NCBI GenBank assembly: GCA_016204035.1
Contig: JACQLN010000007.1
Coordinates: 1-44,244 of the forward strand
Length of the DNA stretch: 44,244 nt
DNA from: Parcubacteria group bacterium
GTDB lineage: Bacteria; Patescibacteriota; Minisyncoccia; JACQLN01
Direction: 5' to 3'
Positions 1,967 through 40,271 of the stretch are shown here, in pieces. Under the pieces are notes generated by a model. It was not told the DNA's origin, made no database searches, and saw nothing but the letters and a program-made list of their open reading frames with translations. The number at the start of each line of letters is the position of its first letter. The first letter of the stretch is position 1. Position numbers and translations under genes: made by a program.

Positions 1967-2041
1967 AACATGGGTATCGGATATGTATCTTAACCTAAAC
2001 AACCTAGATCAGCGGGGTCAAATCTTTCCGATTATCACCCA

Positions 2042-2085
2042 TATCTTACTATCAACCATACGATCGTATGATAAATAGTAATATA
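2042..2085. promoter_or_regulatory. 44-bp palindrome centred on CATACGATCGTATG, downstream flank of the wHTH-Cas2-like gene
   Basis: A perfect 14-bp palindrome lies at 2057-2070. The outer arms TATCTTACTAT and TAGTAATATA are symmetric. Confidence 0.85.
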
Positions 2086-2125
2086 TAATCAGATCTAAAA
2101 ATAGCATGGTTTAGTAAATTTATAA

Positions 2126-2659
2126 CTAAAATATATCAATAGTACCTTTTTTATCAACACTCACTATATGAACTTTACCTTGAAGTCTTAAATCTTTCAA
2201 AGATTTAAGAAAATCCTCCGGCAAAGGACTATACCCAATCCAAACACTCCTTTGAAGTTGACTATAACCACAACCAGTTAATTCATCCCTTATCAAATCC
2301 CTTTTTCTTCTTTCCATTTCGGGAATATCATACATCACCAACCGTGGAATACCGTCTGGTTTAATTGCTTTCTTAAAATTCAAACCGACACTAATTTTTT
2401 CCTTGCCTTTTGGTGTTAAAACCCAACTAGCCCAACGCCGATCACTTTTTTTAGCTATAAGACCTTGCTGACGTAAACGAGTAAGCACAGCCGAAAAATT
2501 AGGCCGGGAAAATTCATAACCATCGGGCAACCCTAAAACTCTACGCCACATTTTACCCTCAACGCGATTACGCGGGAACAAACTTTCTAAAGATAATTCC
2601 CCAACTTCAGAAATTTTCTCTAAGACAATCCTGGAAAAATTTTTAACTTTATCATTCAT
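2126..2659 (-). CDS. Winged-helix (PaaX-like N-terminus) fused to a Cas2-like ferredoxin-fold domain; paralog 1
   Basis: 177-aa ORF. The C-terminal part, IPRLVMYDIPEMERRKRDLIRDELTGCGYSQLQRSVWIG, matches the Cas2 beta1-alpha1-beta2 signature (hhhhYDI...R..l...L...G...lQ.SVa). The N-terminal ~95 aa look like a wHTH domain. Roughly half the residues are identical to the 39506-40033 product by eye. Confidence 0.7.
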   Translation of the reverse strand: MNDKVKNFSRIVLEKISEVGELSLESLFPRNRVEGKMWRRVLGLPDGYEFSRPNFSAVLTRLRQQGLIAKKSDRRWASWVLTPKGKEKISVGLNFKKAIKPDGIPRLVMYDIPEMERRKRDLIRDELTGCGYSQLQRSVWIGYSPLPEDFLKSLKDLRLQGKVHIVSVDKKGTIDIF

Positions 2660-2678
2660 TTTTTTAATCCTTAATATC

Positions 2679-2721
2679 TATATTACTACTTTATTACGAT
2701 CGTATAAAGTATAGTAAGATA
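2679..2721. promoter_or_regulatory. 43-bp palindrome centred on TACGATCGTA, upstream flank (putative operator) of the wHTH-Cas2-like gene
   Basis: Core at 2695-2704, 36 bp upstream of the start codon. The arms mirror those of the 2042-2085 site. Confidence 0.8.
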
Positions 2722-2780
2722 GATTATGCATAATATGTGTTGGGTATATATGTCGAGTATATTTGAATACAGACACTGTC

Positions 2781-3576: not shown

Positions 3577-3662
3577 AGAAACATCGTCCCGAGCGGCTCA
3601 TGGAGATGACCGAGACTACAATTGAGAGGCCTCCATGTCGTCCGCGGAGGGACGATGTTTCT
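3577..3662. repeat. Structured intergenic element, type 2 (CATGGAG core), copy 1
   Basis: Closing stem AGAAACATCGTCCC/GGGACGATGTTTCT (14 bp), inner stem CATGGAG/CTCCATG. Lies 5 nt 3' of the recJ stop codon. Confidence 0.85.
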
Positions 3663-3667
3663 GGAAT

Positions 3668-5428
3668 TCAACAAGAAGTGGTTCTGACACTATCCAGTTT
3701 TTTATAATCAACAAGCTTTAATTGTATCTCCTTACTGTCGTTCCATTCATTTTCATCCAATTCGTAAACCACATCTAAAGTGTCGCCGATTTTGAAATCT
3801 TCGGCAAGTCCGTTGTGCCGGAAAAATAAAATCGGAAATTCTTTGCCGGTTTTTTTATCATGGGCGAAAATTTTAAGATGAGCTCCGTTTTGCCCCAATA
3901 AAACCAGTTTTCTAACCTCAACATTTTTGGTTAAAAACCTGGGTTTAGGATTAGCCAGGCCAAACGGTTCAAATTTTTCCAGCAAACCCATTAAATCCCA
4001 GTTGATTTCGCCAAAAGAAACTTCGGCGTTTATATTCAGCTTTTTTCTTAATAATTCCGGAGTTAAAACTTTTTGGGCGTACTCGTTTAATTTTTCTCTT
4101 ATCGTTTCTTCGTCTTCCGCCTTAAAAGTAGAGCCCGCGGCCGCCGGGTGGCCGCCGTATTTTACCAAATATTTAGAAACATAATTGAGGGCATCTATTA
4201 AACTGAAACCGTTTACACTGCGCAACGACCCCCGGCACAAGCCATCGTCTCTTTTTTCAAAAATAAGCGCTGGCCGGTAATACTTTTCCGAGGCCTTAGC
4301 CGCGACCAAGCCGACCAAGGTCAGCGGCCAAGCCGGAGATCCTTCCATTATAAATATGGGAATTTGAGAACGCTTTAATATGGCGACATCAAGTTCTTTT
4401 AATATTTTTTCCGTAATCCGCTGGCGTTCGCGGTTGTTCTGGTTCAAAGTTATTACCAGTTCTTGAATTTTAGATTCGTCGGGAGAATTCAAAAGTTCGT
4501 AAGCCAGATTGGCATGGGCCATGCGACTGGCCGCGTTCAAACGCGGGCCCAAAGAAAAACCCAAAGTCATGGCATCCAAATTGGTTGATAACGTTTCAAG
4601 GTTGTGCCGGGCTTTGATGCCAGACGACTCCATAAGCATTTGCAAACCGACCCTTTTTGTTTTAGCTAGAACAAAAAGCCCGTATTTAACAAAAACCCTG
4701 TTTTCGCCCAGCAGCGGCACCATATCGGCCACCGTGGCCAGAGCCACCAAATCTAAAAGCCATTTGCTTTTACCCTCCGAAGCTTTATGCGTAGGAGGGC
4801 TACTTTGAGTCAAACCGAGATACAGCTTAAACGCCAGGCCGGTGCCGCACAAATCCTTAAACGGATAACTATCGCCTGTTTGGTGCGGATTTATGAAGGC
4901 CGCCGCGGCCGGCCGGCCGACAATAACCTTATGATGATCCACCACGATCATATCTACGCCGCGGTCTTTAGCCCATTGCACTTCTTTATTATTGGTAGTG
5001 CCGCAATCCAAAGTTACAATCAAGTTGGCGCCGGCCGCGGCCAACTGTTCCAGAGCATTCTGATTAACCCCATGTCCTTCTTTCTGCCGGTCAGGTAAGT
5101 AGATCTCGAAAGGATAATTTATACCCCTAAAATACTCGCTTAAAACCGTGGCCGCCGAAACACCGTCCACATCGTAGTCGGAATAGATAACAATTTTTTC
5201 TTTGGCCAGAACGGCCTTATGGATGCGTTCGCAGGCCAACCGCATGTCTTTTAATAAAAAAGGGTCGTGGAGATCCCGTTCGTACTCCGGCTTAAAAAAC
5301 CGATCTATTTTTTCGGCGCTATCCAAACCGCGCTCCCAAAGTAATTGGGGTATAATCGAAAAATATTGCTTAAATTCGGACAAAAAGTCAGAAGGTGGAG
5401 CAGGCGATAAATCCCAACGGTATTTCAT
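3668..5428 (-). CDS. recJ: Single-stranded-DNA-specific exonuclease RecJ
   Basis: 586 aa, with DHH (YSDYDVDG, DHH) and DHHA1 (GGHPAAAG) motifs. Confidence 0.9.
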   Translation of the reverse strand: MKYRWDLSPAPPSDFLSEFKQYFSIIPQLLWERGLDSAEKIDRFFKPEYERDLHDPFLLKDMRLACERIHKAVLAKEKIVIYSDYDVDGVSAATVLSEYFRGINYPFEIYLPDRQKEGHGVNQNALEQLAAAGANLIVTLDCGTTNNKEVQWAKDRGVDMIVVDHHKVIVGRPAAAAFINPHQTGDSYPFKDLCGTGLAFKLYLGLTQSSPPTHKASEGKSKWLLDLVALATVADMVPLLGENRVFVKYGLFVLAKTKRVGLQMLMESSGIKARHNLETLSTNLDAMTLGFSLGPRLNAASRMAHANLAYELLNSPDESKIQELVITLNQNNRERQRITEKILKELDVAILKRSQIPIFIMEGSPAWPLTLVGLVAAKASEKYYRPALIFEKRDDGLCRGSLRSVNGFSLIDALNYVSKYLVKYGGHPAAAGSTFKAEDEETIREKLNEYAQKVLTPELLRKKLNINAEVSFGEINWDLMGLLEKFEPFGLANPKPRFLTKNVEVRKLVLLGQNGAHLKIFAHDKKTGKEFPILFFRHNGLAEDFKIGDTLDVVYELDENEWNDSKEIQLKLVDYKKLDSVRTTSC

Positions 5429-30442: not shown

Positions 30443-31504
30443 TTACTCTTTGGGCGTAGTTGCATACTCTTTGGCGGCTAAAAGTTCGCGGTATTTTTCG
30501 GTTTCTTCCAGCACAATGCCGGTGCCGCGAGCCACCGCGGTCAACGGGTCTTCGGCCACTTTTACGGCAATGCCGGTTTCTTTGTTTATCAATTCGTCTA
30601 TGCCTCTTAACAAACTGCCGCCGCCGGCCAGCACAATACCCCGCTTCATAATATCGCTTAAAAGTTCCGGCGGGGTTTGCTCCACTATCTCGCGCACCAC
30701 ATCCACCAAAGTTTTTACCGATTTCGTTATAGCTCTTTTCACTTCTTTAGACGTAACCACCACTTCTTTAGGCAGACCGGTAATAAGATCGCGGCCGCGC
30801 ATGGTGGTTTCCAGCTTTTCATTCAGATCCACCACGGCCGCCACCGCTATTTTAACATCCTCGGCCGTGCGCGGGCCTAAAAGCAAGTTGTATTCATCGC
30901 GGGCCAGCTGGATAATATCTTCATTCAGCCGTTCGCCGGCCACCCTTAAACTGCGCACGGCCACCAAACCGCCCAAAGATATCACCGCCACCTCGGTGGT
31001 GCCGCCGCCAATGTCCACAATCATGTTGCCCAGGGCCTCCTGAACCGGCAAGCGCGCGCCTAAAGCCGCGGCCACCGGCTCTTCTATAAGCATAACCTCC
31101 CGCGCGCCGGCGTTGCGGGCCGCTTCTTCCACCGCTTTTTTTTCCACCTCGGTTACGCCGGAAGGAATGCCTATCACCACCCGCGGCCGGGGCACCATAT
31201 AAAAAGAGTCGCCGTGGACTTTCTGAAAAAAATACTTAAGCATCTGTTCGGTAATATCAAAATCGGAAATCACGCCGTCCACCAGCGGTTTTACGGCGGC
31301 AATATGCCCGGGCGTGCGGCCGACCATTTTTCTGGCCTCGCGACCTATGGCTAAAATTTGTCCGGTCTTTTTGTTAATTGCCACCAACGAGGGCTCGTTA
31401 ATGACAATACCCCGGCCCTTAACATAAACAAGGGTGTTGACCGTTCCCAGATCAACACCGATGTCTTTGGCAAAATGACCAAACAGTCTATTGAGTAGAT
31501 ACAT
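30443..31504 (-). CDS. mreB: Rod shape-determining protein MreB (paralog 1)
   Basis: Actin-fold motifs DIGVDLGTVNTLVY and DIGGGTTEVAV. The start is set at MYLLNRLF (M12 of the track ORF). Confidence 0.9.
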   Translation of the reverse strand: MYLLNRLFGHFAKDIGVDLGTVNTLVYVKGRGIVINEPSLVAINKKTGQILAIGREARKMVGRTPGHIAAVKPLVDGVISDFDITEQMLKYFFQKVHGDSFYMVPRPRVVIGIPSGVTEVEKKAVEEAARNAGAREVMLIEEPVAAALGARLPVQEALGNMIVDIGGGTTEVAVISLGGLVAVRSLRVAGERLNEDIIQLARDEYNLLLGPRTAEDVKIAVAAVVDLNEKLETTMRGRDLITGLPKEVVVTSKEVKRAITKSVKTLVDVVREIVEQTPPELLSDIMKRGIVLAGGGSLLRGIDELINKETGIAVKVAEDPLTAVARGTGIVLEETEKYRELLAAKEYATTPKE

Positions 31505-33109: not shown

Positions 33110-33367
33110 GTGGCTAGAAGTGAAGGAAAACCTAAACAGCAGGTTGTGGATGCCACAGCTTTCGCCGCATGTGTCCTAATGGAAAAACTGGACAAGCTTC
33201 TGTCCGCAAAATTGGCGGGTTGGGGTTGTCACAGCCGTGGCTTCCACTTCGTGGTATTGTTTGTCTGCGAGATGTCTGTGGATGGTTCTTTTTTAATCAG
33301 ACCAAAAAATATCAACACGCCGGCTGCTAATTTTATGCGAGACCTTTTAGCTAAACAGCGCTCCTGA
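33110..33367 (+). CDS. Hypothetical protein (GTG start)
   Basis: 85 aa. GGGAG lies 7 nt upstream and a very strong terminator follows. It is on the opposite strand to all its neighbours. Confidence 0.45.
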   Translation: MARSEGKPKQQVVDATAFAACVLMEKLDKLLSAKLAGWGCHSRGFHFVVLFVCEMSVDGSFLIRPKNINTPAANFMRDLLAKQRS

Positions 33368-33373
33368 CTGAAT

Positions 33374-33409
33374 CCCCCAAGATGGCGATCGCCATCTTGG
33401 GGGATTTTA
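33374..33409 (+). terminator. Rho-independent terminator (30-bp perfect palindrome)
   Basis: CCCCCAAGATGGCGATCGCCATCTTGGGGG followed by ATTTTA. Confidence 0.8.
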
Positions 33410-33470
33410 TTACTTTATAGAGATAAATAAACTCTTGAGCTGATTCGACGGCCGAGCGGAACCAAAAAAA

Positions 33471-38359: not shown

Positions 38360-39364
38360 TTACCTTTTAGCAAACAACGCCCGCTTATATAATTCCAAAT
38401 TTTCCAAAGCCACTCCCGTGCCTTTGGCCACGCAAAAAAGCGGCTCATCGGCCACATAACAAGGCACGCCGGTTTCTTGAATTATTAAACTATCTAGGTT
38501 CCTTAATAAGGCCGTTCCCCCCGAAAGAATCATACCTTTATCCATAACGTCGGCGGCCAGTTCCGGCGGCGTTTCTTGCAACACTTTTTTAACGGTTTTA
38601 ACCACTTCACCCAGAGTGTCTTTTATGGCTTTAGGAATTTCGTTGGCATGGAGTTCTATGGTTTTAGGCAAGCCGGCCACCAGATCGCGTCCTCTTATTT
38701 CTAAAATTTCTTCTTCTTTTTGGAGAATGGCCGAGCCTAGAGTGATTTTTATTTGTTCGGCGGTGCGCTCCCCCACGGCTAAATTATGAACCTTATGGAT
38801 GTAATTTTGAATAGCCGCGTCTAGGGCGTTGCCGCCCACCTTGGCCGAAGCCCAAGCCACAATCCCGCCCAGCGATATCACCGCCACCTCGGTGGTGCCG
38901 CCGCCGATGTCTATAATCATATGCCCCGAGGGCTCGTTGATGGGAATGCCCGCGCCCAGAGCCGCCAGGATCGGCTCTTTGACCACATAAGCCGCTTTGG
39001 CTCCGGCTTTGAGCGTGGCTTCCACCACCGCCCTGCGCTCGGTGGAGGTTATGCCGGCTGGCACGGCCACCATCACTTCGGGCCTAAAAAAGCTGAACCG
39101 GCCGGTTATTTTTTTAATAAAATACCGGATCATGGCTTCGGTTATGCGGTAGTCGGCAATAACGCCATCCCTAACCGGCCGCACGGCCATAATGCTTTCA
39201 GGCGTGCGCCCGATCATTTCCTTGGCCGCCGCGCCCACCGCCATAATTTTATTATCATCCAAACTTACCGCCACCACCGAGGGTTCGTTGATGATAATGC
39301 CTTTAGGCGGCACATATACCAACGTATTGGCCGTGCCTAAATCTATGCCTATTTTGATTGCCAT
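38360..39364 (-). CDS. MreB/Mbl actin-like protein (paralog 2)
   Basis: 334 aa: IGIDLGTANTLVYV, IIDIGGGTTEVAVISL. Confidence 0.9.
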   Translation of the reverse strand: MAIKIGIDLGTANTLVYVPPKGIIINEPSVVAVSLDDNKIMAVGAAAKEMIGRTPESIMAVRPVRDGVIADYRITEAMIRYFIKKITGRFSFFRPEVMVAVPAGITSTERRAVVEATLKAGAKAAYVVKEPILAALGAGIPINEPSGHMIIDIGGGTTEVAVISLGGIVAWASAKVGGNALDAAIQNYIHKVHNLAVGERTAEQIKITLGSAILQKEEEILEIRGRDLVAGLPKTIELHANEIPKAIKDTLGEVVKTVKKVLQETPPELAADVMDKGMILSGGTALLRNLDSLIIQETGVPCYVADEPLFCVAKGTGVALENLELYKRALFAKR

Positions 39365-39452
39365 ACGGGATCATACTAGCACTGGAAATGTTTTTTTCAA
39401 ATATTCTTAAACCATATTCTTAAACCATCTAAAAAATCATTTCTGCCAATTC

Positions 39453-39500
39453 TTTATTCCCATACATCTCATACGATCGTAGAAAATATGTTAGAATAAA
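39453..39500. promoter_or_regulatory. 48-bp palindrome centred on TACGATCGTA, upstream flank (putative operator) of wHTH-Cas2-like paralog 2
   Basis: Core at 39472-39481, 25 bp upstream of the ATG. Outer arms are TTTATTC and GAATAAA. Confidence 0.8.
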
Positions 39501-39505
39501 ATAAT

Positions 39506-40033
39506 ATGAAAGTTAAGAAAGGTTTGGTTACAAAATTCATTCTTGAGAAACTAGCCGAGGTAAATGAGTTGGCTCTGGAAGCCATGTTCCCCAGAAACAG
39601 GGCCGAGGGCCGGCTCTGGAGAACAATTTTTGGCCTACCAGCATATTATGAATTTTCTAAAGATAATTTCTCAGCGACATTGAGCCGGCTAAAGAGCCAA
39701 GGTTTAGTGGATAAATTAGGTGGTAAAAAATATGCCAAGTGGCGTTTAACACTCAAAGGTAAAAATAAACTTGGTTCTCTTAAAATGGACTTAATTAAAC
39801 CCGATGGAATTCCACGGTTGGTGATGTACGATGTTCCCGAAAAAGAAAGAAGAAAAAGGGATTTATTAAGATTAGAACTGGTAGCTTGTAACTATCAACA
39901 ACTTCAAAGAAGTGTCTGGCTGGGTTATTCTCCCTTGCCAGAAAAGTTCATACAGAGTTTAAGAGATCTTGGTCTTAAAAATAAGGTTCATATTGTAAGT
40001 ATTAATAAAACCGGAACTTTATCGGAGTTTTAA
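39506..40033 (+). CDS. Winged-helix plus Cas2-like domain protein; paralog 2
   Basis: 175 aa. IPRLVMYDVPEKERRKRDLLRLELVACNYQQLQRSVWLG is colinear with the 2126-2659 product. Confidence 0.7.
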   Translation: MKVKKGLVTKFILEKLAEVNELALEAMFPRNRAEGRLWRTIFGLPAYYEFSKDNFSATLSRLKSQGLVDKLGGKKYAKWRLTLKGKNKLGSLKMDLIKPDGIPRLVMYDVPEKERRKRDLLRLELVACNYQQLQRSVWLGYSPLPEKFIQSLRDLGLKNKVHIVSINKTGTLSEF

Positions 40034-40043
40034 GTATATTCTA

Positions 40044-40099
40044 AAATCTTATTCTTATATATTCATTACGATCGTATGATATGTATATGAATAAGATTT
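40044..40099. promoter_or_regulatory. 56-bp palindrome centred on TACGATCGTA, downstream flank of paralog 2
   Basis: Core at 40067-40076. Perfect outer arms are AAATCTTATTC and GAATAAGATTT. Confidence 0.85.
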
Positions 40100-40271
40100 A
40101 GATAAATTGGATAAGAGGTAATATAAAAAAAATAGAAAATCAATAAAATAAATTCAAAGAATCCCATGGTGCACTTCCTAGGAATGGGTTAAAAATTTAA
40201 GGAATCTGTCTTATACTGTATCTGTCAATAGTGCGGATTTGGGCTAGATATGCTACATTTAGCACGAAAAA

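Follow-up and report, generated by a model that had tools for sequence, protein, structure and literature searches.

Matched tripartite sites around a mini-PaaX gene of Patescibacteria: a probable autoregulated repressor with two DNA readouts suggested by protein-DNA covariation

Introduction

Why should a small bacterial gene be enclosed by two long palindromes, one directly before its start codon and one directly behind its stop codon, and why should the same arrangement, with an identical palindrome centre and different palindrome arms, stand 37 kb away around a paralog of that gene? The question is raised by a stretch of 44,244 nucleotides (contig JACQLN010000007.1 of assembly GCA_016204035.1, here called the window) from a Parcubacteria group bacterium. 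The host is an ultra-small groundwater bacterium, and it belongs to the Patescibacteria, in which very few recognisable regulators are found. The element in question, here called cassette 2 (positions 39453-40099), consists of a gene for a protein with a winged helix and a Cas2-like domain, and of one extended palindrome on each side of that gene; cassette 1 is built in the same way on the opposite strand. The original prediction, made from the letters of this DNA, claimed that the palindrome core is common to both cassettes, that the outer arms differ between the cassettes and match within each of them, as expected if each protein had co-evolved with its own pair of sites, and that the palindromes are not generic terminators. 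The comparison with homologous loci that is described below bears these claims out. It leads to the view that the cassette probably encodes an autoregulated repressor, termed mini-PaaX, with two cognate tripartite operators, and it adds two points to the original prediction: the identity of the core would follow from identical core-reading residues in the Cas2-like domains, and the upstream site carries a -10 element.

Matched sites on both sides of the gene

The two paralogs are colinear, stand where they had been placed, and are 60% identical. The core TACGATCGTA is present in exactly four copies in the window (Table 1), and each copy is the middle of an imperfect palindrome of 46-56 nt, one 5' and one 3' of each paralog gene. 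When up to one mismatch is allowed, five matches are found against 0.6 expected, a number that none of 100 shuffles reached, and ACGATCGT does not occur outside the four sites across the 44 kb window. The six further CGATCG hexamers of the window lack such palindromes, except for the one in a GC-rich terminator hairpin at 33365-33412. Outside the core the cassettes part, as predicted: each of the four half-sites of cassette 2 has TTATTC in register, at 18-23 bp from the dyad, and none of the four of cassette 1 does, while AT[AC]TTACTA is found in 4/4 half-sites of cassette 1 and, together with its reverse complement, is otherwise absent from the window. Gapped alignment of half-sites gave mean scores of 8.9 for pairs from one cassette and 6.4 for pairs from different cassettes (shuffled null 5.6 +/- 1.9), although four sites allow only three possible pairings and the statistical power of the window alone is low; for the matching of sites within a cassette the power therefore comes from the family, in which 60 cassettes were compared.

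The mini-PaaX family is found mainly in Patescibacteria (66 close clusters and more than 384 metagenome loci; 2,736 clusters at 50% identity with E <= 1e-10), and nearly all of its members have 170-215 residues. Among 73 unique diverged homologous loci, which were surveyed for CGATCG within 160 nt on each side of the gene, a CGATCG palindrome is present on both sides in 58. The density of the hexamer is 5.9 per kb in these flanks against a background of 0.27 per kb, and the flanking copies centre long palindromes, with 15-25 of 25 positions paired as compared with 5-12 for background copies. Judged by these loci, the two-sided CGATCG bracket is a trait of the family.

The anatomy of the site was established position by position in 129 sites. 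The first three positions on either side of the dyad, CGA|TCG, are invariant (dyad symmetry and upstream/downstream identity both 100%), and position 4 is A or C (89% and 90-92%, respectively). Positions 5-11 form a weak spacer, for which both values fall to about 55% and 57%, and are followed at positions 12-18 by a box with the consensus TTAACAA, whose family-wide information is low, whose symmetry is 71-93% and whose upstream/downstream identity is 75-93%. Beyond about position 24 no feature is seen and both values are near 35%. Taken as a whole, the boxes show 83% dyad symmetry and 80% identity between upstream and downstream sites.

The boxes differ from one cassette to the next and agree within a cassette. 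Over the 60 cassettes, the identity of upstream and downstream boxes is 0.82 for cognate and 0.43 for non-cognate pairs, and in 43 cases the cognate partner takes one of the first three ranks among 60; the sequence just outside the sites gives 0.35 and 0.32. As far as these identities tell, the boxes are maintained by selection, rather than being left by a recent duplication of the whole region. Together with the protein residues that track the sites (residues 54 and 119, see below), this is what co-evolution of each protein with its own pair of sites would produce.

The sites directly adjoin the start and stop codons; in most loci the stop codon is followed after 13-40 nt by the downstream centre (in cassette 2 the site begins 11 nt past the stop), and the spacing between upstream and downstream sites is 570-748 bp. 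The gene 3' of the cassette is co-directional in 25 loci and convergent in 33. The possibility that the downstream site is the operator of the next gene was rejected on the strength of these 33/58 convergent neighbours, and by the same layout the downstream site is part of the cassette and not of a neighbour's promoter. In five loci (L024, L039, L061, L063, and L080) a third CGATCG palindrome stands beside the cassette; the extra downstream site of L024 has a different box type (TTCTTAT...), like that of cassette 2, and may be left over from an adjacent cassette or serve cross-regulation.

A PaaX-like protein without effector domain

The protein of cassette 2 matches the Pfam family PaaX_M (PF20803; E=2.4e-13, 50.4 bits against a cut-off of 24), and that of cassette 1 reaches 54.5 bits. 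Its predicted layout is an N-terminal winged helix with a recognition helix at about residues 51-62, followed by the Cas2-like PaaX_M domain at residues 100-170. The AlphaFold2 monomer model (mean pLDDT 80) places the winged helix at residues 5-91, with helices 32-42 and 52-64 and a beta wing at 68-81, and a ferredoxin-like beta-alpha-beta-beta-alpha-beta fold at 104-165. The top Foldseek matches in the Protein Data Bank (PDB) over both domains are E. coli PaaX (8a39, 179 columns aligned) and a PaaX-like protein of Jannaschia (3l09); for single domains they are PadR-type and AspA-type winged helices and, weakly, Cas2 (e.g., 5zyf). At the level of sequence profiles the winged helix gives weak matches to MarR, HTH_27 and ArsR, and the best sequence-level matches of the N-terminal part are MecI and PadR. 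A sequence-only PDB search with the Cas2-like domain gave nothing informative.

No Pfam match to PaaX_C was found and the chain ends at residue 175, right after the Cas2-like domain, while the score for the PaaX equivalog TIGR02277 is 17.9 bits, far below its cut-off of 264.55. The Cas2 models remain below threshold for both paralogs (TIGR01573, 22.0 and 23.6 against 24.5 bits; PF09827, 18.3 and 19.7 against 23.8), with matches that span residues 104-143, i.e., β1-α1, and the Cas2 catalytic-type Asp in the motif YD-x-PE is invariant in the family. From profiles and model together, the protein is a "mini-PaaX", that is a predicted DNA-binding head and a Cas2-like domain with no effector domain. 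Neither the profile searches nor Foldseek gave a recombinase or transposase fold or domain. Two other origins were considered and rejected: a defence system, for which PADLOC returned sub-threshold Cas2 profile matches only, and a phage, for which there was one weak match in viral contigs and no meaningful PHROG match. In the searchable literature no description of the mini-PaaX family or of a gene-bracketing operator layout was found.

Two separable readouts suggested by covariation

Which part of the protein would recognise which part of the site? Core base 4 (ACGATCGT or CCGATCGG) has changed at least eight times on the protein tree, and over all alignment columns the mutual information with this base peaks at residue 119 (0.68 of 0.78 bits). 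This residue follows the invariant K117-R118 in helix α1 of the Cas2-like domain. At positions 5-4 from the dyad, D goes with [T/C]A; N, Y, T, H, A or Q with [G/A]A; R or K with [A/T]C; and L, V or I with (G)C, with L038 as the single exception. Five independent contrasts between sister proteins whose core flanks differ leave three of the 175 columns that change every time, and only residue 119 shifts in a consistent direction (DR, DR, QK, DL, DR). It is the same in 14/15 control pairs, and the remaining pair, L079/L088, differs at position 5, as the code predicts.

The code was also applied out of sample to three loci outside the set from which it was built, all of which have a two-sided bracket and matched boxes. 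P0062 (residue 119 = D) has the sites TTACGATCGTAA and TTACGATCGTGA, P0060 (N) has TGACGATCGTCT and TAACGATCGTCA, and P0063 (T) has AGACGGCCGTCC and AGACGGCCGTTT, each as predicted. Over at least five independent switches and in 3/3 new loci, then, residue 119 predicts the bases that flank CGATCG, as judged by covariation.

A second position of the same domain follows the centre itself. At 122 GATC-centred sites residue 135, the x of LQ-x-SVW and R in cassette 2, is K or R, and at 4/4 GGCC-centred sites it is Q, the Q cases being two proteins only. These are found in L053 and L100, where CGGCCG replaces CGATCG at the dyad and both proteins have Q for K/R in this motif.

On the side of the winged helix, residue 54, the first of the recognition helix, is T or S in 56 proteins, and about 70% of their box half-sites contain AACA. 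In 13 proteins from at least five lineages, both window paralogs (N54) among them, it is N, Y, R, D or K, and AACA is present in 0-25%. Partial Mantel correlations are significant both for box against recognition helix given the Cas2-like domain (r = 0.22) and for the reverse (r = 0.18), and therefore do not discriminate between the two. The covariation of single residues indicates that the winged helix would read the outer arms, and the Cas2-like domain the shared CGATCG centre.

The two cassettes of the window agree with such a division. Both paralogs have RRKR-D119 and LQRSVW, and TACGATCGTA would be identical in both cassettes because these core-reading residues are the same. Their recognition helices differ by K52R, D53P, T58V and S60T and their wings at many positions, and these differences would account for the different outer arms.

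The core might instead be the target of another host factor, such as a PvuI-type or GATC methyltransferase or another DNA-binding protein, with the mini-PaaX protein linked to the arms alone, or only indirectly. CGATCG is a classic restriction-modification target that includes GATC, and the core is invariant despite the diversity of the protein family. However, two residues of the Cas2-like domain covary with core and flank bases across lineages, and also out of sample; the centre changes to CGGCCG together with a protein residue; and CGATCG is not avoided in the window, where 10 copies are observed and about 9 are expected from composition. This explanation is considered highly improbable.

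Probable duplex sites rather than hairpins

Long palindromes next to a stop codon call terminators to mind, and the sites might also act as RNA or single-stranded DNA hairpins or as cruciforms, i.e., as unusual terminators, 3'-end stabilisers or processing sites. The protein would then bind the folded form, its winged helix on the stem and its Cas2-like domain on the CGATCG tip. The downstream sites lie within the 3' untranslated region and fold well as RNA (-21 kcal/mol with z = -4.9 for 40038-40105 in cassette 2; -17 kcal/mol in cassette 1), and some relatives have perfect arms of 24-25 nt. The upstream site of cassette 2, however, folds weakly (-6.2 kcal/mol, z = -1.65) and would sit 5' of the transcription start, and upstream and downstream sites are equally palindromic. 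Within-site complementarity is no higher than the identity of half-sites between sites, in the spacer and the box alike, the spacer is only about 55% complementary, and compensatory changes are few, which argues for the readout of half-sites on duplex DNA and not for a hairpin, as pairing itself is not selected. Selection for a hairpin or cruciform as the main constraint was rejected on these grounds, and a role of the palindromes as folded structures is very unlikely. The symmetry of the sites is that which a symmetric protein on duplex DNA would be expected to impose.

The original prediction was also right to set generic terminators aside. They are ruled out by the AT-rich stems (about 25% G+C), by the missing T run (T fraction 0.38 after the downstream site and 0.34 after the upstream site), by a terminator scan that returned nothing at either site of the cassette, and by a separate GC-rich hairpin about 50 nt past the downstream site in L011 and L012. 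True terminators in the window are GC-rich and have T tails. The hairpin at 33365-33412 looks like such an intrinsic terminator, being GC-rich and perfect, with GCGATCGC at its apex, a T run behind it and -32 kcal/mol; hairpins with the same GCGATCGC tip are likewise present in L012 (~2825-2860) and L098 (~2255-2290). The CGATCG tip that these terminator hairpins have in common with the mini-PaaX cores may be a coincidence.

A putative promoter element inside the upstream site

In 33 of 65 cassettes the upstream-site arm that faces the gene contains an extended -10 motif, TGnTAnnnT, as compared with a frequency of 19-23% in the three remaining arms and of 7.5% in shuffled arms; the distance from the end of the motif to the start codon is 6-9 nt in 12-14 cases. 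In cassette 2 no Shine-Dalgarno sequence stands between TGtTAGAAT and the ATG, and its transcript probably has no leader or almost none. Cassette 1 has its -10 hexamer TAATAT in the gene-facing box, followed by the ribosome-binding site AAGGA. With a -10 element inside the upstream site, occupancy of that site should repress the gene, i.e., the protein would repress itself.

How might the parts work together? A mini-PaaX homodimer would lie on one face of about 40-48 bp of duplex DNA. The Cas2-like domains would make up the core of the dimer, sit over the dyad and recognise CGATCG with its flanks, residue 119 of helix α1 reading base pairs 4-5 from the centre and residue 135 of LQ-x-SVW the central A.T or G.C pair, while the variable outer boxes, at 12-24 bp from the centre, would be recognised by the two winged helices. 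About one helical turn separates the putative contacts near +/-4.5 bp from those near +/-15 bp, from which we infer one face of straight B-DNA. With different helices and wings the paralogs would recognise different outer arms, presumably with no cross-talk. An occupied upstream operator would block RNA polymerase, and the gene, transcribed as a monocistronic unit with almost no leader, would thus be under negative autoregulation. The downstream operator, the least certain step, would most likely form a loop of about 600 bp with the upstream site, or else act as a protein roadblock that insulates the unit.

Presence and absence of the cassette

Cassette 2 stands between a gene for a PEGA-domain protein and mreB. 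The junction of mreB and cassette is kept in L011-L013 (MreB 86-90% identical), while in L092-L099, eight loci with MreB 79-90% identical, the cassette is absent and the PEGA-domain gene and mreB are adjacent or separated by other small open reading frames (ORFs). The presence/absence polymorphism that the original prediction proposed to look for in related genomes is thereby seen. In the empty PEGA-mreB spacers tblastn and blastn found no cassette remnant, and there is no CGATCG palindrome in them; the spacers of the window and of L092 are too diverged for insertion borders to be aligned. The MreB tree is an unresolved polytomy as regards gain or loss, and its outgroup, L095, is empty. The spacer is variable in these relatives, with small ORFs at L093/L094 2971-3297, L096 1433-1813 and L098 1773-1997 that encode 108, 126 and 74 aa, with no Pfam match.

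Block-wise presence and absence of a gene between matching palindromes may suggest a minimal selfish or mobile element, in which the winged helices bind the ends and the Cas2-like domain nicks or recombines at the CGATCG dyads. The absence of the block, with no remnant, from eight relatives including the outgroup would fit such an element, as would the unrelated housekeeping contexts in which close homologues sit, the compact design with sites that abut the start and stop codons, the invariant Cas2-type Asp and YD-PE motif, and a gene G+C content about 4 points lower than that of the flanks in 49/52 loci. On the other hand, gene G+C follows host G+C (r = 0.91), and both cassettes are syntenic across genomes, the recJ-rnhA-cassette order of cassette 1 being kept in L001, L020, L023, L026 and L027 with RecJ only 61-65% identical; a long-resident gene fits these two observations. 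No target-site duplication was seen at the cassette borders, the empty sites hold no solo or hybrid palindrome, and no joint that skips the cassette was found in four metagenome runs, which are kept as contigs with rare variants dropped. No known recombinase or transposase fold is present, and the asymmetric -10 element of the upstream site fits regulation. A mobile element is accordingly judged unlikely. The more specific notion that the Cas2 fold both reads bases and retains a catalytic role, nicking or recombining at CGATCG so that the ~650-bp cassette mobilises or copies itself, is quite unlikely; if true, it would offer a possible evolutionary link from PaaX-type regulators to the DNA-handling role of Cas2. 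The distribution is best described as that of a unit that appears to be gained or lost as a block and to be mostly a long-term resident, with no positive sign of transposition.

Several observations weigh against an autoregulated repressor all the same. The block presence and absence between relatives fits a selfish element as well. The invariance of YD-x-PE has no obvious need in a pure dimerisation and reading module. In the Mantel comparison the recognition helix is not clearly separated from the overall phylogeny or the rest of the protein. Within the 44-kb window no target was found except the own gene, and a self-only regulator has no obvious use. The distance between upstream and downstream sites shows no helical phasing across the family, which gives no positive support for looping, and the runs that hold cassette sequence are DNA only, with no RNA run among them. 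An autoregulated mini-PaaX repressor nevertheless remains the probable function, given the covariation with two parts of the site, the matched boxes and the position of the promoter element.

Features of the window

The coordinates of both cassettes are collected in Table 1; the extended palindromes of cassette 2, with the perfect 11-bp outer arms of its downstream site, are as originally predicted. The G+C content, about 46% for the window, falls locally to 32-40% at both cassettes. The neighbours of cassette 2 are mreB, holB and the PEGA-domain gene, and those of cassette 1 are recJ, rnhA and the RNase P RNA gene.

Table 1. Positions of the two cassettes and of their parts in the window
Feature	Position	Strand	Remarks
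Cassette 2, upstream site	39453..39500		48-nt imperfect palindrome, dyad 39476/39477; arms 39453-39476 / 39477-39500, complementarity 71%; kept in orthologous loci L011, L012
Cassette 2, upstream site, TTATTC outer boxes	39455-39460 and 39493-39498		second box as reverse complement
Cassette 2, upstream site, core TACGATCGTA	39472..39481		CGATCG family-invariant
Cassette 2, putative extended -10 element TGtTAGAAT	39489..39497	+	in gene-facing arm of upstream site, 8 nt 5' of ATG
Cassette 2, mini-PaaX paralog 2 gene	39506..40033	+	175 aa
Cassette 2, downstream site	40044..40099		56-nt imperfect palindrome, dyad 40071/40072; arms 40044-40071 / 40072-40099, complementarity 79%; outer 11-mers AAATCTTATTC / GAATAAGATTT perfect; kept in L011, L012
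Cassette 2, downstream site, core TACGATCGTA	40067..40076		
Cassette 1, mini-PaaX paralog 1 gene	2126..2659	-	177 aa; putative core-reading residues RRKR-D, LQRSVW common with paralog 2
Cassette 1, upstream site	2676..2724		core 2695-2704; boxes ATATTACTA, TAGTAAGAT; 1-nt indel between arms
Cassette 1, putative -10 hexamer TAATAT	2680-2685	-	inside gene-facing box of upstream site
Cassette 1, downstream site	2041..2086		core 2059-2068; between gene and RNase P RNA gene

The RNase P RNA gene (GAGGAAAGTCCG motif) occupies 1105-1931 on the minus strand, directly 3' of cassette 1, as it likewise does in L001 (~3660-3720), and about 130 nt separate the 5' end of this RNA from the downstream site of cassette 1, which lies upstream of it. 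At 39401-39426, in the interval from the mreB promoter to the cassette 2 upstream site, there is a 13-nt tandem duplication (ATATTCTTAAACC x2) that is missing in a contig of run X4 and in L011 and L012, which points to a recent strain-level polymorphism. A dispersed repeat of about 99 nt is present in five copies (7565, 17864, 30329, 33470 and 38255; 76-100% identity to the reference copy), one of which stands at a distance of about 1.1 kb from cassette 2, in the interval between holB and mreB. Part of mreB resembles a region at about 31 kb (30960-31083 with 38856-38979, 31388-31418 with 38927-38957; 77-81% similarity at the DNA level), which suggests a second MreB/actin-like paralog in the window.

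Implications and comparison with known systems

Each member of the family stands next to its own readable sites, so that mini-PaaX may offer a natural data set of protein-DNA specificity pairs, in which two readouts can be separated, winged helix against outer box and Cas2-like domain against core. The resulting predictions are specific: D119R should turn TA-CGATCG-TA into CC-CGATCG-GG, and R135Q should turn GATC into GGCC. Paralog-specific outer arms would also account for the coexistence of several copies, with no cross-talk, in a single small genome. We know of no other case of a Cas2-fold domain that reads DNA sequence; if the present reading is true, this would be the first.

The gene between matching palindromes, with its block presence and absence, is reminiscent of REPtrons (RAYT with REP palindromes) and of IS200/IS605 elements, whose hairpins are subterminal. 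Mini-PaaX differs from them in that it lacks a Y1/HUH transposase fold, has no dispersed solo copies in the 44-kb window, keeps syntenic positions over long distances and shows no sign of hairpin selection. MecI/BlaI and PadR-type repressors are dimeric and bind palindromic operators that overlap their own promoters, as is suggested here for mini-PaaX, and the MecI/BlaI half-site TACA/TGTA resembles the common AACA/TGTT box. These repressors, however, dimerise by a helical domain that is not Cas2-like, their operators are shorter and have no central element, and their genes are not bracketed.

With Cas2 the protein shares the ferredoxin-like fold and the β1-α1 motif (a hydrophobic strand, YD, and a basic helix), and in Cas1-Cas2 complexes a Cas2 dimer sits on duplex DNA. 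In mini-PaaX this domain is fused to a winged helix and misses the Cas2 cut-offs, and its neighbours are housekeeping and not cas genes; no CRISPR-like repeat array was found among the direct repeats of the window, cas1 not having been searched genome-wide. Cas2 is not known to be sequence-specific, whereas the mini-PaaX domain appears to read bases.

The closest likeness is to PaaX, the phenylacetyl-CoA-responsive repressor of paa operons in E. coli W and Pseudomonas, which has the same winged helix and Cas2-like middle domain. E. coli PaaX binds the widely spaced inverted repeat TGATTC-N27-GAATCA and represses its own promoter by steric hindrance (PMC9493321). The same wide operator geometry can be read from the sequence here, with a box-N22-box arrangement where PaaX half-sites are about 30 bp apart; the boxes stand 12-18 bp on either side of the dyad and a putative -10 element lies inside the gene-facing box. 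Mini-PaaX nevertheless differs from PaaX in several respects. It is without the C-terminal effector-binding domain and hence has no obvious ligand switch, and no paa genes are nearby. It forms a very large family that is found mainly in Patescibacteria, its operator has an extra invariant CGATCG at the centre, and its sites stand on both sides of the gene.

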